From a virus (Duplodnaviria; Caudoviricetes), in the IMG/VR virus record IMGVR_UViG_3300030330_002422, positions 3,574 to 67,573 of that record: 64,000 nt of DNA. One strand, written 5' to 3'. Positions 8,342-42,085 of the stretch are shown one piece after another. The notes beneath the pieces were generated by a model that ran no database searches, was not told the origin of the DNA, and worked only from the letters and a program-made list of their open reading frames with translations. The position numbers and the translations under genes are program-made. Position 1 is the first letter of the stretch, and every line of letters begins with the position of its first letter.

Positions 8342-11300
8342 TTAATTTATTGCTAAAGTAGTAGAACCATCAACAGTAATAGTTATTGCTTGCTCAGAAC
8401 TAGGGAACAAGTTGTTACTATTGTATTCAACTTTTAATGTTATTTTAATTTTGTTTTCTTTATCTCCTGGAGTACCAGTGTCAGTCGCAGCTACAACAGA
8501 TACTCTATTGTTATCAGACGATGTTACAGTAAAGTTAGAAGCTGCAACAGCATAGTTCAATCCATTTATAGTTTTTGGGTGTATATAAAACTCATGTGTT
8601 ACTTCTTGAGATACACCAACAGTAGTTCCTTCTTCGTAGTTATTTGTTATACTAGAGGTTATGCTTTGAGCTTCTGTCGCTGATGTATTTAATGTAAACT
8701 TAGCATTAATATTGTTTATAACACCACTTATAACTAAAGGATAAAACTTACCGTAACCACCCATTGTTATAGAGCTTAACAAACCTAAACCTTGAGTAGA
8801 CTTGCTGTTCAAACTTATGTTTGTTTCGTCTACCTCGACACCTATTATGTTAGCAAACTTTTTACCCTCCTTGTCTTTAAACTCTACAACTTGACCAGAG
8901 TCCATGTCTGTTTCTATACTTGTTGCTCTCCAACCGTTTGAACCTTCATAACCAAGCGTCTTGAAATCTTTAACTACACTAGGAGCATCGTTAAATAAAA
9001 ACTTAACACTAGACTCGTATTGAACACCATAGAAATTATTTCTAATCTCGTTGTCATTATGTTTCCATATATCACCGTTTTTAAACGTGTAATAAACACC
9101 GTTTAAAGAAACAGCAGACTCTGGCAAGAAAGACTTAAAACTAGTCCAACCTACAGTTGACTCGGCAAAACTTATAGTATCACCTTTATCATCGTAGTTT
9201 TGTTTTTTATTTATAGTTAGGTTATAAAGATCTTTGTCTTGATCGTAACTACCTATTAACGTTTCAGCCTCGTGTAAGTTATCTTTAAAATATCTAGACA
9301 TACCTGCTGCAGATATTTCTGTCAAACCGTCCATAGATAATCTTAATACAGACCCTCTTGCTTTATCTGTAAAATAAGCTCTATAACCAAACGACGCAAA
9401 CGACTCTGGGTTTTTAGATATACCGTAGTCTCCAGAAAAAGGTACAGCTTGACCTAAAACAGCGTTACTAGCAACAACTTGTGGGTTACCATCCGCGTTG
9501 TATAATGCATCTTTGTTAGATAATATTCTTAAAACCTTGTCTTCGCAAAAAGCAACTAAATCAGTGTTTCTACTAAATAATTTTTGTAAAGAACCGTATT
9601 CAGGATTTACATCTTTAGTTATTTTATCAGCCATTATAAACTCATTAAGTTTATTAAAGCCTGTTTTTGAATTGTAAAGACCAGAGTATATTAACCCGTT
9701 TTTTCTATTTTCTTCTTCGTATGGCTCGTCTAACGTTGTAGATACTTTAGGACCTTTATCTATTTTAACAGCGTTAAAGTCATCTCTAAGTCTATCAGAT
9801 TCTACACCATTACCAAAAGTGTAACAATTATGCCATCTAACAGGCCTATCAGATACATCAACGGTATCTCCCATTAGTCTAACAGAAACACTTTTTATAT
9901 GAACTCTTTTATAAGTGCCCTTAATATTTACAAGTTCTGCTACAAATAAGTAACCTGATGAAACTGGATTACCATTAGAGTCTTCGTTTTGACTTTGATC
10001 AAACACAAAAAGTCTAGTGTTTAAACCTTGTTTTAAAGTTTCTGTTTTTAAAGGTCTATAAGAACCATTTTCACTACCTATTAAAAAGTATTTTATAGTG
10101 TGTTCTCCACTTACGGAATCAAAAACATCATTATTTATTTCTTCAACATCAATATCTACTTGGTAAGCCTCACCACTAATAAGAGGTATAGGCCCTGTTC
10201 TTAAAAAAGGATAAGTAGACGTGTTAGTACCCGTCTCTATTATAACTCCGTTACCAGCAGAGTTATCAGCTGTTAAACCACTTGAAAGCTCGTAATCTTG
10301 TAAACCATTTACACCTAGCGTAAACTCGTCGTTATCAATAAGATTATCACCTATAGAGTTAGATATACCAGTTTTTGTTATAAAATCTTCATGATACTCA
10401 ATTATTCCATTAGCATCTTTTTTAGAAACCCTAAGGGTTATACCAGCTGGTAGTTGACCTGAGTTTGGATCCCAAGTGTTATTATCTATGTAGAACTCAC
10501 CAGGTCTATCAACTACAATTTTAGCATTAGCTAAAAGAACTGTTCCACCCGGAGCATAAGGTGTGCCAACGTCTGAAACACCTAAGTAGTTACCACCGCC
10601 GTCATTAATGTTTTCATTGTTTAGAGCCTCAACGCTCATACCTGTTTTTAGTATCATACTAGTGTTAGAGGCTTCGTAATACAGATTAAAATCAGTATTG
10701 TCTATAGGTTCAACCTCAAATATAGCTGGATTGTCAGTGCTATATCCACCGTCTCCACTTGCACCACTACTAATTATTTCTAAAGAAGCATAAGCTAAGT
10801 GGTTGGCTGTGTCAGATTCTAGCTCGTCTAATCTTTTTAAAGGAGTTTGACCCCCACCGTAACTACTAGATGTAGGACTCCAAACTATATCTTTATCTAA
10901 CATCAAAGCTATTCTATAACCTTGATTCGATCTAGAATGCATACCCCACTGCATAGATGACGCTGGGTGATAACTTAAACCATAGTCAGCAACAAACTTA
11001 CCGTTTATCGCCGCTGAATGATCAGCTGTTTGGTATGCTTGCGCCGTGTTCCAATCAACTAAATCACCAAAATTAAGAACTTGTTCAACGTTATGGTAGT
11101 TTTTAACCTTACCAGTTGCAACTACTTTTTTAACAGTGTATATAGTGTTTGTTGGATCGTTGCTCCATCTAAATTTAGTACCAGTAGTAGTAAGAGCTTT
11201 TACAACTTTTATATCGTTAAAAAATTCGCTTGTTAAAGAAAAGTCATCAAAAGTGTTTGCGCCTCTAGCATATAACACGTCACCACTTAACGTTCCGCTT

Positions 11301-14300
11301 ACAGTTACAGAATCTAAGTTTGTTTGATTACCTATATTAGCCACTCTAAAACAACAATAGTCATTACCTATAACAAAACCAGTTCCCAACGCGTTGTTCT
11401 CTACGTTTAAATCTTGACCATCGTATAGCTTTTGATACTCTGGCCAACCAAAAGCCCAGGCTTGATCTATACAAAACTTTTGATTACCCTCTTGGTAATC
11501 ATCACATCGCCAGTGACTTCTTTTCCAAGTACCACCAGTAGCGGGTTTATAATAATCAGCGCCTGTTTGTGTCCAGTGAGAAGTACCCGCATCATAATCA
11601 CCAAAATAAGGATTAGCTATTAGTCTATGGCTAGCTGAAGGATCAACAGGGTTTAAATCGTATATTCTACCGTCCCAATCGTTACCATCTGGATCTGAAA
11701 TCCAACCATCATGACCAAATATAGCTTGGTAGAAAAACGAATAATGAGTGTTTGGTGATACACTATTTAGGCTACTATTGTGTCTAGCGTTAACTCCGTT
11801 GTAAACACCTTCATTCAAAGTGTCATTAACATTGCTCTTCCAATAAAATAAAGATTTATTTCTTAATGTAAAGTCACCATCTTTTCCATCTTCTGTAGCT
11901 GAACCCGTGTAAGCAGATAAACTTCTAATGTTTTTGTCAAAAGTATGAGCCCAAAACACATTAGCTGCAGCTGTTACTAGTGTGTTAGTTGAAGCTGCTG
12001 ATTGGTTTTTATCAGATATTCTTTTTAAAATTTCAGCGTCTTTTTTAATTTTAACAAAAAATCGACCTTCAAAAGCGTCGCTATCAACTCTGTCAGACTC
12101 CTCGTAGTACTCTAAAAACAAACCTTTATTCTCAGGGTTAGAATCATTGTGGTTTCCAACAAAACCTACATCAGCACCAAAAGGCTCTATCAAAGTAAAC
12201 TCGTAGTAATCTTCAGCATCAGAGAAGTCTACATCTGTAGAAGAAGCTGATTCGTTAACTCTACTAACACTTAGTATCTCGTAAAAACTAGTCATTGAAA
12301 CAACCTCGTTGTTATCTTCTTTACCTATTTTTATAAACCTACCAGTTTGATCGTCCATTAAAGCACCTCTTGGTTCTACACCTTCAATATCTGGTTGTGC
12401 TAAAAACGAATGATTATGAACATCGTTACCAGCTATTCTAAATGTTGTTTTACCAACCTGAGGAAAACCAACAGCTGTTGCTGTAAACTGCAAACTTTGA
12501 CCGTTTTCAGCATAAACCCTTTCGCCTAATTGTCTTTTTACAAACTTAACAAAGTCTGGGGCCGATCCTTCTTTGGCTAATATTTTGTATCTACTTTTAT
12601 CTACTATACTTTTATCACCGTCGTGTTCTTTTTTAAGTATAATGTAATCATCTCTTTCTACTTTATCAAAATCAGAAGAAGCAAAAGACATCCATATATG
12701 CTCGTCATCATCATCATAATAATGTCTATCTAAAGACAGGTTGTAATACTCTGTAGCAGCATCTTTTACGTAATACTTAACGTGTGTAGCCCAGTCTGGC
12801 GTGTCTCCATTAACATTAGCAACTATAGTGTTAGCTGTTAAAGAGTTTTCTTTTTGTATTTTTACAACTCCGTTAGGTGTAGAAAACACAGGTGTTTGTC
12901 TACCATACTGATCTATGTAAGATATTCCTACTTGGTAGTTTCTAATAGACTTTATTGATTTGTTAGTTTGTTTTGGATCTATATATCTAGAGCTCAAAGA
13001 TGCGCTAACCTGTGGTAACTCATTATCTAATATGTTATATTGTTGTGTGTAGTTACCGTATATTAATCTATTAGAAGATATTTCTTGTGCTTTGGCTTTT
13101 TTAGGAACATTATCAAAGTGTCTTAACAATTGAGAGCTTTCTAACAAACCTTCATACTGTTCACTTGTTATAACGTAGTCAGTTAAATTTGTTAACTCGT
13201 CACCTCGTATACTAGCGAACTTGTATATGTTAGTGCTATCACTATCTTTAACTAATATATCTAATTGTTTTACTCTAGAAGGTTTTGTTTCAAAGTTTCC
13301 AAGGGTTATACGTCTAACCGTATTTAACATAGACTTATTATAAGAATCTATAGCATCGAACTCATACTCATCACCTGGTAAAAAAGCAACCTCTGTAAAC
13401 GGTGACATAGCAGAGTACTCGCCATCAGCGTATCTCCATCTGTAAGCAAATCTTGGAAATCTAAACTTGTATATAGACTCTAGTTCTGTTAATTCAGCGT
13501 CCCAATACCTAGCTGTCTCATTATCTAATTTTACAATGTCATCGCTAATAGAAAGTATTTCACACTCAAATGTAGATCTTTCTTCATTAGAACCATAGTT
13601 ACCGTAATCGCTTTGGTTAACCGTAATAGGATATAGTTTCAAATTGCTTATATGTCCCCTAAAAAAAGCGTTATCATCTCCGTTTAAAGTTTGACCACTG
13701 TTTGAACCTGCTGTCGATAGATTTCCTTGACTATCTACTATAGTACCTCTATCACAGTAAATTCTAAAACTTGTTGAGCTTTTTCTAGCTGTAAAAAACA
13801 CTCTATGAGTACCTACGGTAGAAGGTAACAATAAATTATAATAACCATCACCAACGTGTGTACCATGTATGGCCGATAAATAAAGTTTACCATGCTTAGT
13901 CTCATTATCACCGTCGCTACTAGTTATAGTATATTCTAACTCGTATGTTTTTAAACCTTCTATCTGAAAGTTAGTATCGTTTCCATCTTCGTTATAAGCA
14001 ACCCAACCAGCCTGGTGTTGCGTGTAGTAATTAGCGTATAAGTAGCCATTGGTAGAATTCGTGCTTTGTGGTATAGACCAAACAAGTCTATCAGAGCCAC
14101 TAGTTGTTAAATCTGTATACTCTTTTTTTTCTGCACTCCAATATAAATAACAATTGTTTGGAGTGGATAAAGCACCAGGGCCAGGAAGTGCAGCATCAGC
14201 GTGTATCATATTTGCTCCTCTGCTATAACCTGAGTTTAAATCAAGCGGTGCTGAATACCCATAAGTAGAACCAGCGTATTCTAAACCTGTTTTTTCTTTT

Positions 14301-17300
14301 TTAAGCTTTACTTGAATCTGAACAGCAGAGTCTGTTTGGTTAGTTAATTTTACAATATCTCCTTCTGCAAAGTTTGGCTTAGGAGAGAAAGATAAATCTT
14401 GTATTCTAACTGGTCTAGCACCGTAATATTGTATAGATATATTTGATATTCTAGCCGTAACACCTTTATGGCAAAATATAGGTATCATATTTTGGCCATT
14501 GTAATAACTAGAAGCAGTGTTGTTTATATTGTCAGGTAAATCCGATTGATCGTTAAAATAAGTACCCACAATATATGTACCAACACCAGAAGACTTAGGC
14601 GCTCTTTGATAGGTGCTTAAACCGTTGTTTCTACCACTGTTAGTAGGATCTCCAAAACCAACTGGATAAACATTTGTAGTTCCAGGTATATAAACAGAGG
14701 CGTCTATATCTATTATTTCTACTGTAGCCCTTATAGTAACATGTGTTCCTTTTCCAGCTCCATTAACTTCGTTTAGATTATAAACTATATTATCTACATA
14801 TCTATAATCGGACGCTGTATAACTAGCGTCTTTAGTGTGTTCGTAACCAGCCTCTACACCAACCCAACCTGGACCGAAATCTTGCGCTCTACTTTGAAAG
14901 TGAAACAAACCTTGTTGTGTTTCTGTTTCTAATTTAGGAAATATCCAAGGAACATCTCCAACATAATCTCTTAACCATCTACCTTGTTTGTCTAGCTTAG
15001 GCGTGTTACTTGTTCCTGGTGGCTTTGGAACTATCTCGTTTGTTTCTTCGTGTTTATATGTCCAAAAACTAGTATTGTTAAAACTATCCCAAACAAAAAA
15101 CATTAGAATATCTCCTTCTTGTGGTATGTAGGCGTTACCATCTTCAAAGTATTCGTCTCTCCAGGGGTGTACTGTAACAACACCTTGTTCACTCATGTAG
15201 TGTGTTGTGCCAATGAATTTAACGTAATAATCGGAGCTCGCGTTTCCAAACGCATTAGGTGTAAGAGCGTATACATTATAATAACCTCTACTACCATTCA
15301 TCAAGCTTCTAAACTTTTTATAACCGTTATCAGCAGCGCCTGGTAAATCTCTAATATCCATAGCTTTTTGCCAAATGTTAGGATCGGTACTCCAACTACC
15401 ATGTAATGGGTATCTAGTACCTTGACCTGAGTCTTTTGGATTTGCCCAAGGAGTAACGTTTGTAACATCTAAATGAATTTCATAACTTCTTGACCAGTAA
15501 CCATCACTATTTCTAGGGTTTTTCTTCATCAAGCTCGCACCGTTATACAAGGTAGCTTTTGTGTTGTCGCCGCCAACAGCACTACCAGCCTCAGTACTAT
15601 TAAAACCATCATCAAAATCATAAAACACTATCAGGTTGTTAGTAAAATTAACGTAAGAACCACCGTCGTCTTGAGTTACATCAAAATGGTATTTACTTTT
15701 ACGCAAAGCTAAACAAGCTGACTCAGGTAAATCTGTATTCCAAAGAGCTAAATCGTCTATATTACCTTTTAAGTAGTCACTTAAAGAAGAACCACCATCA
15801 TACTCAGCACCTATAGTCCAGTTTTTATCTGTACTTGCGTTTTCATCAAGAGTAACATTTAAAGTAGTATCTATAGCTAAAACACCTTCTATGTAAAGCT
15901 TTACCTCTGTAGTACTGCTGACCTCCTTGAACGTAGCAACTACGTGATACCATTTTTTCTCTTCTATAGGGAAGTTATTACTGTCAGCGCTCACGCCTTG
16001 ATCATTAAGGTTTACATGCCAAGCGTGGTTTGGTTGCGAGTAAGCACCAATTATAAGCTGGTTGCCACCACCGCTATTGTTTCTACCTATTATAGCTCTA
16101 TTCGACGAGCCTAACTCGTCAAACTTAACCCAACAAGCAAAAGTAAAAGTGTTACCAACAACTATAGATTTATCAAACTGAGCATATTGATTTGATCCGT
16201 CTAAATATAAAGAATGATTTGGTTTGTAACCCTTAAAAGCCGTATAAGCGTTTGCCCAACCGGCTCTTCTTTTAATTTTAGCAAAAACAGGTTGATTATT
16301 CATTTCTAAACCAGCAGAACCATAAAGATGTGATCTATTATAAGAATACGTTGTATTTGCTGGGTGAACACATATAGATTTACTCTTTGCGTTTATATTA
16401 GGCTCACCGTGAACAGTATCACTTAAACTAATAGATGGGGCATTTAAAGGGTATTTTTTTATAACTGTTATGTGTTTTTCTAACACATCTCCAATAACCT
16501 CGTTATTATAACTTCTTTGTTTAGTTGTGGTTGTCCAGTTTAACTTTTCATCTTGACTACCAGTTATGTTTTTGTTAGACCCACCTTTAAAATGATCTAT
16601 AGATATTTTTTTAGGTTCGTTCTCACCGTCAGTCCAGAAAAGCATACCATCAAGTATGTTTATACCTGTTATTTGATTTCCGTTAAATTTTAAGAAGGCA
16701 GACTCTTCATCTGTTGATGCATCTACTAAAACAGGTTCTGTCTCTTCTGTTTTAAAATCATACTCAGCAATACAATTTACGTTTTTCTTTTTAATAGAAA
16801 CCCTATCTATAGTGGTTTCGTCCCAATAAAATTGACTTGGAGACGATCCGTGACTAGAATTTATACCTATCAACAAATCTGTATCACCAGCTGTAAAAGT
16901 ATAAGATACACTACCAACAGCATTACTGTTAGGTATTGTTGGATATGTAAAAACACCGTTAACTGTTTTTCTAATAAACAACTCTTTATGAGTTCCTGTG
17001 GAATTACTAGCGCTAGTGTTAATAGATGTAACATCAAATGTCAACGTGTACTCTTTACCTACCTCAAGTATTTCTTTTTGTTGTATAAAAGGAGTTGTGT
17101 TAACCTGTGTTCCATCTTTTCCAAGAGTAAGGTTTCCGTTAACAGTATCAACAGTAACGTTTTCTTTATCGAAACCATTCCAATTAGTTAAACCATTTGG
17201 ATCAGCTTGACCATCATTAAAGTTTCCGTTTTTTATTATTTCTTCTCTTTGACCATAAACAAACCAGTATATCTTATCGTTAGCATTGTCAACAATAGAA

Positions 17301-17506
17301 CCAACACATTTAGACTTACCTATATAAGGTGATACACTAGACTTTGAGGTATTACCATAAGTATTTTGTAAAGCCCCAACGTCAGAACCTTTAGATGTAG
17401 AAACCTCTATGTTTAAAGCGTCTCTATACTCGTTTTTTTGAACTAGTCTTTCGTCGAGGTCCTTGTTCATCTTCCCCGACATAAATGTATTTTTAATCTC
17501 CGGCAT
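8342..17506 (-). CDS. tail stabilisation/nozzle (muzzle)-type protein, 3054 aa, with inserted LamG and CBM-like modules
   Basis: N-terminus MPEIKNTFMSGKMNKDLDERLV..NEYRDALNIEV and C-terminal DYGISKNPESFASFG..YFTDKARGSVLRLSMDGLTEIS match crAss-like/P22 gp10-like stabilisation proteins. LamG motif (FTFACWVKF..WYHVVATF..LYIEG..GNIDDLALWN) at about 15600-16215. Confidence 0.75.
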   Translation of the reverse strand: MPEIKNTFMSGKMNKDLDERLVQKNEYRDALNIEVSTSKGSDVGALQNTYGNTSKSSVSPYIGKSKCVGSIVDNANDKIYWFVYGQREEIIKNGNFNDGQADPNGLTNWNGFDKENVTVDTVNGNLTLGKDGTQVNTTPFIQQKEILEVGKEYTLTFDVTSINTSASNSTGTHKELFIRKTVNGVFTYPTIPNSNAVGSVSYTFTAGDTDLLIGINSSHGSSPSQFYWDETTIDRVSIKKKNVNCIAEYDFKTEETEPVLVDASTDEESAFLKFNGNQITGINILDGMLFWTDGENEPKKISIDHFKGGSNKNITGSQDEKLNWTTTTKQRSYNNEVIGDVLEKHITVIKKYPLNAPSISLSDTVHGEPNINAKSKSICVHPANTTYSYNRSHLYGSAGLEMNNQPVFAKIKRRAGWANAYTAFKGYKPNHSLYLDGSNQYAQFDKSIVVGNTFTFACWVKFDELGSSNRAIIGRNNSGGGNQLIIGAYSQPNHAWHVNLNDQGVSADSNNFPIEEKKWYHVVATFKEVSSTTEVKLYIEGVLAIDTTLNVTLDENASTDKNWTIGAEYDGGSSLSDYLKGNIDDLALWNTDLPESACLALRKSKYHFDVTQDDGGSYVNFTNNLIVFYDFDDGFNSTEAGSAVGGDNTKATLYNGASLMKKNPRNSDGYWSRSYEIHLDVTNVTPWANPKDSGQGTRYPLHGSWSTDPNIWQKAMDIRDLPGAADNGYKKFRSLMNGSRGYYNVYALTPNAFGNASSDYYVKFIGTTHYMSEQGVVTVHPWRDEYFEDGNAYIPQEGDILMFFVWDSFNNTSFWTYKHEETNEIVPKPPGTSNTPKLDKQGRWLRDYVGDVPWIFPKLETETQQGLFHFQSRAQDFGPGWVGVEAGYEHTKDASYTASDYRYVDNIVYNLNEVNGAGKGTHVTIRATVEIIDIDASVYIPGTTNVYPVGFGDPTNSGRNNGLSTYQRAPKSSGVGTYIVGTYFNDQSDLPDNINNTASSYYNGQNMIPIFCHKGVTARISNISIQYYGARPVRIQDLSFSPKPNFAEGDIVKLTNQTDSAVQIQVKLKKEKTGLEYAGSTYGYSAPLDLNSGYSRGANMIHADAALPGPGALSTPNNCYLYWSAEKKEYTDLTTSGSDRLVWSIPQSTNSTNGYLYANYYTQHQAGWVAYNEDGNDTNFQIEGLKTYELEYTITSSDGDNETKHGKLYLSAIHGTHVGDGYYNLLLPSTVGTHRVFFTARKSSTSFRIYCDRGTIVDSQGNLSTAGSNSGQTLNGDDNAFFRGHISNLKLYPITVNQSDYGNYGSNEERSTFECEILSISDDIVKLDNETARYWDAELTELESIYKFRFPRFAYRWRYADGEYSAMSPFTEVAFLPGDEYEFDAIDSYNKSMLNTVRRITLGNFETKPSRVKQLDILVKDSDSTNIYKFASIRGDELTNLTDYVITSEQYEGLLESSQLLRHFDNVPKKAKAQEISSNRLIYGNYTQQYNILDNELPQVSASLSSRYIDPKQTNKSIKSIRNYQVGISYIDQYGRQTPVFSTPNGVVKIQKENSLTANTIVANVNGDTPDWATHVKYYVKDAATEYYNLSLDRHYYDDDDEHIWMSFASSDFDKVERDDYIILKKEHDGDKSIVDKSRYKILAKEGSAPDFVKFVKRQLGERVYAENGQSLQFTATAVGFPQVGKTTFRIAGNDVHNHSFLAQPDIEGVEPRGALMDDQTGRFIKIGKEDNNEVVSMTSFYEILSVSRVNESASSTDVDFSDAEDYYEFTLIEPFGADVGFVGNHNDSNPENKGLFLEYYEESDRVDSDAFEGRFFVKIKKDAEILKRISDKNQSAASTNTLVTAAANVFWAHTFDKNIRSLSAYTGSATEDGKDGDFTLRNKSLFYWKSNVNDTLNEGVYNGVNARHNSSLNSVSPNTHYSFFYQAIFGHDGWISDPDGNDWDGRIYDLNPVDPSASHRLIANPYFGDYDAGTSHWTQTGADYYKPATGGTWKRSHWRCDDYQEGNQKFCIDQAWAFGWPEYQKLYDGQDLNVENNALGTGFVIGNDYCCFRVANIGNQTNLDSVTVSGTLSGDVLYARGANTFDDFSLTSEFFNDIKVVKALTTTGTKFRWSNDPTNTIYTVKKVVATGKVKNYHNVEQVLNFGDLVDWNTAQAYQTADHSAAINGKFVADYGLSYHPASSMQWGMHSRSNQGYRIALMLDKDIVWSPTSSSYGGGQTPLKRLDELESDTANHLAYASLEIISSGASGDGGYSTDNPAIFEVEPIDNTDFNLYYEASNTSMILKTGMSVEALNNENINDGGGNYLGVSDVGTPYAPGGTVLLANAKIVVDRPGEFYIDNNTWDPNSGQLPAGITLRVSKKDANGIIEYHEDFITKTGISNSIGDNLIDNDEFTLGVNGLQDYELSSGLTADNSAGNGVIIETGTNTSTYPFLRTGPIPLISGEAYQVDIDVEEINNDVFDSVSGEHTIKYFLIGSENGSYRPLKTETLKQGLNTRLFVFDQSQNEDSNGNPVSSGYLFVAELVNIKGTYKRVHIKSVSVRLMGDTVDVSDRPVRWHNCYTFGNGVESDRLRDDFNAVKIDKGPKVSTTLDEPYEEENRKNGLIYSGLYNSKTGFNKLNEFIMADKITKDVNPEYGSLQKLFSRNTDLVAFCEDKVLRILSNKDALYNADGNPQVVASNAVLGQAVPFSGDYGISKNPESFASFGYRAYFTDKARGSVLRLSMDGLTEISAAGMSRYFKDNLHEAETLIGSYDQDKDLYNLTINKKQNYDDKGDTISFAESTVGWTSFKSFLPESAVSLNGVYYTFKNGDIWKHNDNEIRNNFYGVQYESSVKFLFNDAPSVVKDFKTLGYEGSNGWRATSIETDMDSGQVVEFKDKEGKKFANIIGVEVDETNISLNSKSTQGLGLLSSITMGGYGKFYPLVISGVINNINAKFTLNTSATEAQSITSSITNNYEEGTTVGVSQEVTHEFYIHPKTINGLNYAVAASNFTVTSSDNNRVSVVAATDTGTPGDKENKIKITLKVEYNSNNLFPSSEQAITITVDGSTTLAIN

Positions 17507-37593: not shown

Positions 37594-37833
37594 ATGTCAA
37601 ACAAAATTAACAACTTAACTACAAAAAGATTTGTAATCAGAAAAACTCTAATTGGTACTAATACAGTAATAACATTTACTAACAAAAAAGGTGATACATA
37701 TTCTTACAATCACGACGAAGTATACAATACATTTTCAGATAAATTTGAGTCAATGAACTGTTTTCAAAAGTACAAAAGTTACACTAACTCAAATGTAATA
37801 CCAAAATTCTGTCGACACTTACAAATCAAGTAA
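37594..37833 (+). CDS. hypothetical early protein
   Basis: 79 aa after promoter copy 2; stop codon abuts the hammerhead. Confidence 0.65.
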   Translation: MSNKINNLTTKRFVIRKTLIGTNTVITFTNKKGDTYSYNHDEVYNTFSDKFESMNCFQKYKSYTNSNVIPKFCRHLQIK

Positions 37834-37885
37834 GATTCACTGATGAGACTTGAGTAGTCGAAACACCTTCTATGGTGTCTGAATC
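37834..37885 (+). ncRNA. type I hammerhead ribozyme
   Basis: GATTCA-CTGATGA-GACT(TGAGT)AGTC-GAAA-CACC(TTCTAT)GGTG-TC-TGAATC: full core, three perfect stems, GUC cleavage triplet (cut 3' of 37879). Confidence 0.92.
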
Positions 37886-39633: not shown

Positions 39634-39654
39634 TATGACAAAAGACTGTTAAAT

Positions 39655-39867
39655 ATGAAATGTATAAAATGTAAAAGTATAATACCTGACGGACGAGTTA
39701 GACTTGGTTACAAAACATGTGTCAACTGTTCTACTACAGAAAGATATGGCTGTGTACCCATCACTTATCATAAAACTGGTAACTCTATCCAGATTATGTC
39801 GGCTAGTCAAGCTGCTGAGATAGCTAAGTCAACTCGCCGTAAAGGTTATGGAACAATGTTAAGATAA
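39655..39867 (+). CDS. DksA/TraR-type C4 zinc-finger protein
   Basis: CIKCKSIIPDGRVRLGYKTCVNC matches CxxC...IP..R......CxxC. Confidence 0.65.
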   Translation: MKCIKCKSIIPDGRVRLGYKTCVNCSTTERYGCVPITYHKTGNSIQIMSASQAAEIAKSTRRKGYGTMLR

Positions 39868-40897: not shown

Positions 40898-41025
40898 CAA
40901 TTGGAGCAATAATTTTAGTTTATTTAATTATTAAAGCTGCTTCGGCGGTAGAACAAGATAAGAGACATAAAGAATTTATTAAAAACTTAGAAAAATATGA
41001 CAAAAAAGAGGAAACTAAACAGTAA
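40888..41025 (+). CDS. small membrane-anchored protein (45 aa)
   Basis: MGLAIGAIILVYLIIKAAS... one hydrophobic segment. Confidence 0.4.
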   Translation: MGLAIGAIILVYLIIKAASAVEQDKRHKEFIKNLEKYDKKEETKQ

Positions 41026-41134
41026 AAACCCAAAGTACATGGACAAAAGCCGGTTAACTGAAAGAGAAGTACTTAAAAAAGTATTGTTCAAAGAGGTTAA
41101 AGGTGCTAAAATTTATGGGGTTTGGTATAAATAG
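40997..41134 (+). CDS. small hypothetical protein (45 aa)
   Basis: MTKKRKLNSKNPKYMDKSRLTEREVLKKVLFKEVKGAKIYGVWYK. Confidence 0.5.
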   Translation: MTKKRKLNSKNPKYMDKSRLTEREVLKKVLFKEVKGAKIYGVWYK

Positions 41135-41156: not shown

Positions 41157-41323
41157 ACGAGCGTGGCGCGTGAGATGTGTAGTCGAAAAGTGAGTACCTC
41201 GCCTAGAACAGGTGTATGATACTGTCAAAGTATCACGAGCAAATAACTATCGACATCTTACACAGTGAATTGGCCCGATGAGTGATGGTAACGAAACTGT
41301 GTGTACTCACTTGGCCACCTCGT
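41157..41323 (+). ncRNA. candidate pseudoknotted structured RNA upstream of tRNA-Arg
   Basis: Non-coding GC-elevated island. Stems 41157-67/41314-23, 41170-78/41253-61, 41188-97/41303-12 (10 bp perfect, crossing), 41217-23/41229-35, 41262-66/41296-300. Confidence 0.65.
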
Positions 41324-41329
41324 TTTTAT

Positions 41330-41403
41330 GGCCGAATAGCTCAACTGGATAGAGCAACAGCCTTCTAAGCTGTAGGTTGCAGGTTCGAGTCCTGCTTCGG
41401 TCA
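41330..41403 (+). tRNA. tRNA-Arg (anticodon TCT)
   Basis: GGCCGAA/TTCGGTC acceptor, D-arm TAGCTCAACTGGATAGAGCA, anticodon arm ACAGC-CTTCTAA-GCTGT, T-arm GCAGG-TTCGAGT-CCTGC; no encoded CCA. Confidence 0.95.
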
Positions 41404-41435
41404 CAAACCAATTACGATTGGTGAACGATAATATA
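41403..41435 (+). promoter_or_regulatory. putative early promoter, copy 6
   Basis: ACAAACCAATTACG-N9-CGATAATATA. Confidence 0.75.
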
Positions 41436-41460: not shown

Positions 41461-41850
41461 ATGCAAGAACTTGAAAACAAAAAAGCTGCGTTAGAGCTTT
41501 TACAAAATGAAACTAACGAAAAGTTGCAAGATTATAGGCAACAAATATCTATTTTACAAAAACAAATAGATGATTACAACAAACCAGAGTTAACACCAAT
41601 GTATATGGACAAGGTATACGAGGCAATTGAAACTGCTGTTGATGGTTTTGACTTTGACGATACTGATAATTACGACATTGAGTACGGTATTGATTATGAT
41701 GGTAGAGTACATTGTGAGAGCTTTGGTTTTTGCAACGCGAGTGATTTAGTACAAGAAGTCGCAGATGAAGTAATGAAACTATTTAGAGAGGCTGAATGCC
41801 CTGAAGAATTAGATACAACAGAACCTGATAACCATAAACCAGTAGAATAA
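41461..41850 (+). CDS. hypothetical protein (coiled coil plus acidic domain)
   Basis: 129 aa ORF. Confidence 0.6.
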   Translation: MQELENKKAALELLQNETNEKLQDYRQQISILQKQIDDYNKPELTPMYMDKVYEAIETAVDGFDFDDTDNYDIEYGIDYDGRVHCESFGFCNASDLVQEVADEVMKLFREAECPEELDTTEPDNHKPVE

Positions 41851-41851
41851 T

Positions 41852-42085
41852 ATGAAGACATTATATGACAAACTCAAACCAGAGTATAAAAACAAATTAG
41901 AAAGCAATAAGTTCGAGTACGAATCTTCTATTAAAGCTATAGAAGACACGCTTAAAACAAACCATAGTTGGTATAGTCTGAGTATGCATGATATATCTAA
42001 CATCCTTGTATTCACTGATGTTACATTATACTCTATAACTAGTTCAGACCTTATGTTTGGTGAAATGTTTTTTAACGAAGATTAA
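41852..42085 (+). CDS. hypothetical protein
   Basis: 77 aa ORF. Confidence 0.55.
   Translation: MKTLYDKLKPEYKNKLESNKFEYESSIKAIEDTLKTNHSWYSLSMHDISNILVFTDVTLYSITSSDLMFGEMFFNED

Follow-up and report, generated by a model that had tools for sequence, protein, structure and literature searches.

Bacteriophage T4, whose hosts are Enterobacteria, carries two small stable RNAs, RNAC and RNAD, in its tRNA-gene region, and we know of no fixed core with exchangeable hairpins in either. Structured units also stand at early-gene boundaries: in T7 early RNA these are the intergenic hairpins processed by RNase III, in T4-type phages the ‘promoter-early stem-loop’ cassettes. Like the RNA described below, these cassettes lie by repeated early promoters in a region of gene gain and loss; to our knowledge they have no long invariant core and no shuffled, internally conserved repertoire of hairpins. 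Structured phage RNAs beside tRNA genes are already known, T4 RNAC and RNAD being examples (PMC9697503). HDV-like ribozymes carry a catalytic cytosine at the first J4/2 position, and theta ribozymes have been proposed to cut tRNA 3' trailers (PMC10879173).

We analyzed a stretch of 64,000 nucleotides (the window), most of a 67.6-kb virus record, in which a 167-nt element lies within a + strand block of small early genes. The element is a real, strongly conserved structured non-coding RNA of uncultured marine phages and a member of a previously uncatalogued, phage-specific modular family of structured RNAs, whose common domain we call module A. Like T4 RNAC and RNAD, it is phage-encoded, non-coding and of unknown function, a likeness in general description (PMC9697503). 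Shared with Y RNA/YrlA (RF02553; PMC4201824) are paired ends with a bulged stem, variable inner modules, a following U-run, possible tandem copies, and an association with tRNA-like domains; the differences are that the tRNA or tRNA-like unit of module A stands beside the stem rather than nested in it, and that no Ro60 gene was found. TROVE/Ro60 (PF05731) had no match in the phage with valid controls, DUF2828 (PF11443) had none in the phage but none in its 14 control genomes either, and the GNCGAA-type Ro motif (PMC4201824) is absent from the element. RAGATH and other small self-cleaving ribozymes resemble module A in being compact, with invariant junctions, variable stems, and a region that holds a hammerhead-like element, but no Rfam match to RAGATH, pistol, hatchet, twister, or twister-sister was obtained. 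HDV-like and theta ribozymes are, like the window copy, phage RNAs beside a tRNA with the same strand order (a likeness of the window copy only), whereas module A lacks the catalytic C and a conserved double pseudoknot and lies on the wrong side of the tRNA.

Rfam 15 was searched at gathering threshold with the window and 12 loci, and at E<=10 with the window element, the RNA island of a relative, and a scaffold-S2 copy; both searches returned nothing beyond tRNA-related or chance matches, and the models for manA, GOLLD, ROOL, 6S-Flavo, SRP, RNase P, and tmRNA gave no match. An earlier sequence-only reading of this DNA had proposed an unassigned non-coding RNA here, to be checked against manA, GOLLD, ROOL, and HDV/theta. 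The RNA is indeed structured, non-coding, and on the + strand, and Rfam 15 matched none of these families, only tRNA. Likenesses to the Ro-binding strand of Y RNA and to the SRP Alu domain at its 5' end were dropped for want of model support, as was a 13-of-14 resemblance of the S2 5' end to the T-box sequence, which had no RF00230 match at E<=10.

The element in the window and its relatives

The element occupies 41157-41323 (+), 167 nt; element numbering is the window coordinate minus 41156. Its features, by window coordinate and then by element numbering, are as follows.

41157..41167 (+): clamp 5' strand, made of ACGAG (P1a), bulged C41162, and GUGGC (P1b)
41168..41181 (+): invariant 5' core of module A (GC, GUGAG-AU, GUGUA), identical in relatives with ligases 47-78% identical
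41182..41254 (+): P3 stem (41182-41186/41250-41254) and its cargo; P3 pairs covary in 125 sequences
41188..41197 (+): AAGUGAGUAC, 5' strand of a window-specific 10-bp helix crossing P3
41198-41201/41236-41239 (+): three-way-junction cargo within P3, with hairpins at 41202-41212 and 41217-41235
41255..41261 (+): AUCUUAC, invariant, pairing with GUGAGAU (register H_A)
41262..41300 (+): P4 hairpin, cargo module ‘M3’, holding a hammerhead-like box
41301..41313 (+): invariant 3' core, GUGUAC-UCAC-UUG
41303-41312 (+): 3' strand of the 10-bp helix
41306-41310 (+): CUCAC, the alternative partner of GUGAG (register H_B)
41314..41329 (+): clamp 3' strand (GCCAC, CUCGU), then UUUUAU; a terminator-like end
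41330..41404 (+): tRNA-Arg(UCU), found by ARAGORN; Rfam 72.5 bits
Element 1-5/163-167 and 7-11/158-162 (+): P1 clamp, with C6 bulged
Element 14-20/99-105 (+): GUGAGAU/AUCUUAC stem, extendable to 9 bp with (GU)/(AC)
Element 32-41/147-156 (+): perfect 10-bp helix, crossing the GUGAGAU/AUCUUAC stem
Element 42-45/80-83 (+): CUCG/CGAG domain, enclosing hairpins 46-48/54-56 and 61-67/73-79
Element 106-110/140-144 (+): ACAGU/ACUGU stem

Every pairing listed in the sequence-only reading is present at 41157-41323 (+), and the gap of 6 nt that it gave between element and tRNA agrees with the start of tRNA-Arg(UCU) at 41330 (ARAGORN, Rfam). The predicted minimum free energy is -51.7 kcal/mol (z = -2.6 against dinucleotide shuffles, + strand), and G+C is 0.44-0.49 compared with ~0.30 in the flanks and genome. 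The window copy has a 10-bp clamp followed by UUUUU, an intervening ‘loop’ of 145 nt, and behind it a tRNA that lacks its own promoter motif; the copy scores 36 bits against our model R1 (E = 2.5e-7) with the core matched exactly.

A DNA ligase gene 2.5 kb downstream led to 78 related viral loci at 47–78% identity, many of which proved to carry the element when searched with nhmmer and by motif. Pattern scans added further viral loci and at least 120 marine metagenome contigs, giving at least 125 distinct copies in all, from uncultured marine phage or viral and metagenome contigs. Because the pattern scans fixed the core sequence, core invariance is unbiased in the ~30 loci reached via the ligase or via scaffold S3. 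Homologues are identical over their first ~25 nt and last ~24 nt and differ in the middle, with total lengths of 69–193 nt; the minimal natural form of the module A RNA is 69 nt long (L007:3258-3326). Length differences are not multiples of three and the element is thus non-coding, and it was assigned to the + strand because of its G-U pairs and its co-orientation with the early genes. Predicted folds beat shuffles in five of six homologues (z = -2.3 to -3.1). Genomes carry one or two copies, always at the same locus and in the same orientation, and always at gene or promoter boundaries.

All public runs containing the window, as assembled contigs, are marine, and no GenBank phage has the module A motif. 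In genome collections the single match (L099/L224; JAAXIF010000025.1, 63,395 bp) is a contig of phage size that was binned with a Sphingobacteriales MAG, a placement that either hints weakly at the host or is an artefact of binning; a covariance-model search of 150 other genomes, a sample of the phylum to which that MAG belongs, found no module A. The closest counterparts of the window primase-helicase come from phages of Cellulophaga, Flavobacterium, and Tenacibaculum. A 3054-aa protein (8342-17506, -) bears Laminin_G_3, a carbohydrate-binding domain, and a crAss-type muzzle C-terminal domain, and by Pfam it is a predicted tail structure, not a virion RNA polymerase.

The invariant core, its pairing registers, and the crossing helix

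Module A runs in the order closing helix, GC, GUGAG, RY, GUGU, x1, P3, y1, UCUUAC, UCAC, UUG, closing helix. Its ~28 near-invariant bases (GC, GUGAG, RY, GUGU ... UCUUAC, UCAC, UUG) are unchanged while the neighbouring ligase stands at 47–78% identity, and a covariance model with the core unpaired recovered only two divergent core types among 59 sources (the window and 58 ligase-linked loci). The innermost three pairs of P3 are formed in 125/125, 118/125, and 118/125 copies, with all four Watson–Crick types represented. In a 70-row alignment, paired cells reached 90% against 74% in shuffles and 36–46% in slid controls, and the observed level of covariation was attained in 0/500 shuffles. This P3 ‘covariation’ is in part whole-hairpin replacement rather than point compensation. 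In the closing helix, the two pairs beside the core (inner P1b) covary across scaffolds. Covariation among homologues, which the sequence-only reading had named as a check on its RNA, is found in stems of a large family (125 sequences; 70-row alignment).

No trans target complementary to the invariant 3' core was found within the window, and Pfam and PHROGs yielded no RNA-binding candidate among the neighbouring ORFs. Gene co-occurrence in 6-kb flanks followed overall relatedness only, with no protein partner found nearby. A 70-aa protein (39655-39867, +) with a CxxC...CxxC pattern ends in RRKGYGTMLR and has no match in Pfam or PHROGs; in many relatives the RNA island lies directly 3' of it. 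A kink-turn reading of the core was dropped because it fits one variant only (L033).

GUGAG has two mutually exclusive partners, UCUUAC (H_A) and CUCAC (H_B). The latter is favoured by RNAalifold, single-sequence folds, and constrained energies, with a mean difference of 3.4 kcal/mol in 50 short forms. Among variants, L247 (reached via scaffold S3) has a compensatory A-U at H_B pair 18-73 (short-form numbering), and changes in L248, L009, and L071 give rise to pairs 22-70 and 20-72, which would fit a helix that is continuous but irregular; the S3-anchored informative variants are a few, too few to pick the native register. On the side of H_A, L059/L102 have an extra GCGAG that pairs with a CUCGC variant, leaving H_A free to form, and AAGUGAGUAC in the window does the same by pairing with GUACUCACUU. 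At minimum energy, homologues fold as rods or as three-way junctions, with the clamp and GUGAG/CUCAC closing them, and in predicted folds of the short forms the clamp, GUGAG/CUCAC, the irregular loop, and P3 would stack at least 25 pairs.

Three folds of the window copy are near-equal in energy: a family-like nested fold (-50.9 kcal/mol), one that is likewise nested but uses the 10-bp helix (-51.7 kcal/mol), and H_A with P3 and P4 (-47.4 kcal/mol, plus -12.9 kcal/mol for the duplex minus a pseudoknot penalty). When the insert was shuffled, 10 nt perfectly complementary to the fixed 3' core turned up in 47 of 20000 trials (p ~0.002), and when the whole element was shuffled, in 7 of 1000; the 10-bp crossing helix is absent in all relatives, including 119 short forms. 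Because the helix is improbable by chance yet missing in relatives, and the nested folds are near-equal in energy, a pseudoknot specific to this genome is possible. Thus the crossing helix of the sequence-only reading exists in the sequence and is unlikely to be accidental, but it is confined to the window copy, where a nested fold has similar energy.

Scaffolds and cargo hairpins

Module A is embedded in several settings. The simplest, scaffold S1, is the bare ACGAG/CUCGU clamp with a U-run; it accounts for 59 copies including that of the window, and UUUU follows 56 of the 59. In scaffold S2 (31 copies) module A is a branch of a larger, probably pseudoknotted structure, and in scaffold S3 (17 copies) it fills one slot of a three-way junction that often abuts a start codon and has no U-run. 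The other 18 copies have other closing helices. Both S2 and S3 also occur without module A. S2 (L003:4386-4559, L028:3749-3848, L019:4414-4573) has a conserved core of its own, in which GGCAGG/CCUGCC would cross GUGGU/ACCAC to form a pseudoknot, and its slot holds module A, another hairpin, or nothing.

Hairpins occupy two defined sites within module A, the P3 site and the P4 site, where a second hairpin is inserted between UCU and UAC of UCUUAC (six copies, including the window). Seven of the eight hairpin modules tracked by BLAST were found in more than one setting (P3 apex, P4 site, second slot of S2, or alone inside the clamp); some were also seen by eye in S3 slots, and one lies inside a tRNA-like chassis downstream of some S1 copies. 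Homologues of the window P4 module in L083, L003/L082, L079, and L111 occupy other insertion sites and carry compensatory changes, this module being found elsewhere at the P3 apex or in another scaffold. No homologue was found of the window three-way-junction cargo (the 42-83 domain), which is unique to this genome. These occurrences show that the hairpins at the P3 and P4 sites come from a common pool and have moved from site to site and from scaffold to scaffold.

The bases that flank P3 (41181 and 41255 in the window) are A/A in 99 and U/U in 19 module A copies and never A/U or U/A; they could form a non-Watson–Crick pair, or insertion of the hairpin could have left them as a 1-nt direct repeat. 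Around the P4 insert, too, both flanks are alike (UAC...UAC).

In some relatives (L007:3140-3440, L004, L006/L090, L085, L093, L099) two further structured units flank the element. The upstream unit is a ~90-nt RNA closed by GUCAGGU/ACCUGAC, and the downstream one is tRNA-like, having a perfect T arm and a stem that resembles an acceptor (AGCUAG/CUAGCU), and is missed by ARAGORN and the Rfam tRNA model. L085 has a ~200-nt acceptor and T-arm RNA upstream.

Genomic setting and possible roles

The early region around the element is punctuated by a bipartite promoter-like motif, ACAAA..A.TACG, 10 nt, then GATAATAT, with seven copies in the window against 0.09 expected by chance.

37333, 37518, 38405, 38717, 39601, 41403, 43474 (+): positions of the early promoter-like motif
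40997..41134 (+): last small early-unit ORF, 45 aa; in relatives the stop of the homologous ORF abuts the RNA
41403..41434 (+): promoter-like copy overlapping the last two bases of the tRNA

The motif was not found between 39601 and 41403, so a transcript shared with the tRNA is most likely, as the sequence-only reading had held, and from the arrangement of motifs the element and tRNA are most simply the tail of a transcript that would start near 39640. At its 5' edge the clamp overlaps what is left of a promoter upstream box, and in relatives the next promoter motif directly follows the U-run. No other terminator-like hairpins were found in the early region. Between two early genes at 37816-37884 (+) lies a hammerhead-like element with an intact CUGAUGAG / CGAAAC / GUC core; its score with the RAGATH-1 hammerhead model, 23.7 bits (E = 1), falls short of the gathering score of that model, 56.3.

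Of the 118 copies with enough downstream sequence, six have a canonical tRNA within ~20 to 95 nt (Arg-UCU in two, Asp-GUC in three, and Ser-GCU with Asp-GUC in one), four of these starting 5–6 nt past the clamp. A T-arm-bearing tRNA-like unit follows 28 copies, and 84 have neither. Marine contigs join 41326 to ~42081 with ~12 other bases between, which makes tRNA-Arg and the ORFs 41461-41850 and 41852-42085 an insertion relative to close relatives. Since the downstream counts vary and these contigs lack it, the tRNA is a frequent but optional neighbour; the link to tRNA in the sequence-only reading is sound for tRNA-Arg, 6 nt downstream, but is not obligatory in the family, most copies having no tRNA or tRNA-like unit. 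One contig from an RNA-labelled viral library spans the element–tRNA junction and may be DNA.

We favour, tentatively and at somewhat short of an even chance, a modular phage RNA that is stable, is freed from an early transcript, and has the invariant core as its working surface. The early transcript starting near 39640 would yield the element as its 3' end, and the element would then be released as a compact, stable RNA, through termination at the clamp and U-run or, in the window, through RNase P cutting at the 5' end of tRNA-Arg. The core (GUGAG, GUGUA, UCUUAC, UCAC, UUG), partly unpaired, would be the working part, and the variable hairpins would be exchangeable cargo. The core is probably a recognition or switch domain. 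Its invariance over such divergence argues for a partner that does not co-evolve, for which it may be the recognition surface: a conserved host machine, an RNA, a small molecule, or chemistry. It may also act as a two-state switch, GUGAG pairing with UCUUAC or with CUCAC, and one 5' strand with two 3' partners would forbid covariation.

The clamp and U-run alone could make the element a purely cis-acting terminator. More generally, it may be nothing but a punctuation or processing cassette between early transcription units, in which the inner hairpins are passengers and either the clamp and U-run terminate transcription and protect the 3' end or the long irregular helix serves as a T7-like RNase III site. 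We regard this as possible and rather unlikely. The constant position at gene or promoter boundaries, the U-run with the next promoter motif behind it in relatives, the lack of other terminator-like hairpins in the early region, the rods and three-way junctions closed by clamp and GUGAG/CUCAC, and the promoter remnant at the clamp edge would all suit such a cassette, but terminators and nuclease-blocking hairpins need no ~28 invariant bases, and the core also occurs in S3 as an optional side branch directly before start codons, with no U-run. Behind an efficient terminator, moreover, tRNA-Arg would be poorly expressed from the same transcript or stay unexpressed. A ligand- or factor-sensing two-state switch coupled to the terminator (clamp and U-run) or to occlusion of the start codon (S3) appears improbable. 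The three-way constraint of GUGAG and its two invariant partners would explain the missing covariation, the registers differ by only ~3.4 kcal/mol, rare variants (the window; L059/L102) bring in an additional strand that lets both partners be paired, and the domain adjoins a U-run or AUG. Against such a switch, some scaffolds take module A as an insert but also occur without it, the genes downstream are served by promoters of their own, no candidate ligand emerged, and the S1 clamp forms in either register.

A new small self-cleaving or otherwise catalytic RNA, cutting the early polycistronic RNA beside the upstream hammerhead-like element and the tRNA, seems equally improbable to us. Invariant junctions with freely variable peripheral stems are the usual ribozyme pattern, the embedding contexts are varied, and the hammerhead-like element with its intact core lies in the same early region; no Rfam ribozyme family matches at E<=10, however, no candidate cleavage site can be named, and a simple irregular helix fits the core equally well. 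More doubtful still is a mosaic of small selfish palindromic elements in one hot spot, REP/BIME- or BOX-like and of no function to the phage. Hairpin modules do move between sites, and the flanks of P3 (A/A, U/U) and P4 (UAC...UAC) resemble short target duplications, but each genome has one or two copies at a constant locus and orientation, the core is invariant over deep protein divergence, and compensatory changes occur within a module type. The lead of the sequence-only reading, an HDV-like/theta or hammerhead ribozyme that matures the tRNA, we consider exceedingly improbable. The HDV-like strand order is real in the window copy and absent in relatives, where the crossing helix is missing and the nested double pseudoknot is not conserved; that reading had itself remarked that the HDV catalytic nucleotides are not evident, and the J4/2 equivalent (41301-41302; G145, U146) is indeed GU, with no C. 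No Rfam 15 covariance model of this type matches at E<=10, and the element lies 5' of the tRNA while theta ribozymes are tied to 3' trailers (PMC10879173). The supposed echo of a hammerhead core fails as well: the CCGAUGAG...CGAAAC box in the P4 loop has no stem II, homologous hairpins show CUCGACUAG or CCGAUCAG at its position, and Rfam gives no match.

The free, stable RNA with a working core can also be read more boldly. Module A would then be a new class of RNA domain, self-cleaving, a two-state ligand switch, or a binder of a conserved host machine, plugged by marine phages into several chassis (bare clamp, pseudoknot-like scaffold, three-way-junction scaffold). We think this unlikely, if worth stating. 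As part of the same reading, and held at the same low probability, the whole would be a ‘chassis-and-cargo’ system with a hairpin pool shuffled among chassis, the tRNA-like one included, whose hairpins might be fast-evolving decoys against the host.

Phage RNAs adjacent to tRNAs, T4 RNAC and RNAD being the classic case, have gone for decades without an assigned function, and the module A family offers an unusually clean handle on them: a 28-nt core that stays constant while neighbouring proteins fall to ~50% identity, and a minimal form of 69 nt. The family, its invariant core, and its chassis-and-cargo build were found neither in Rfam nor in the literature searched. Nature also supplies ‘experiments’ in the form of extra strands that fill the alternative pairing, hairpins at two defined sites, and a core that is an optional plug-in. 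If the core is catalytic, binds a ligand, or mimics a host machine, it would represent a new class of RNA that is abundant in the ocean; if it is a punctuation cassette only, the shuffling of hairpins between scaffolds would still show how phages rebuild their early regions.
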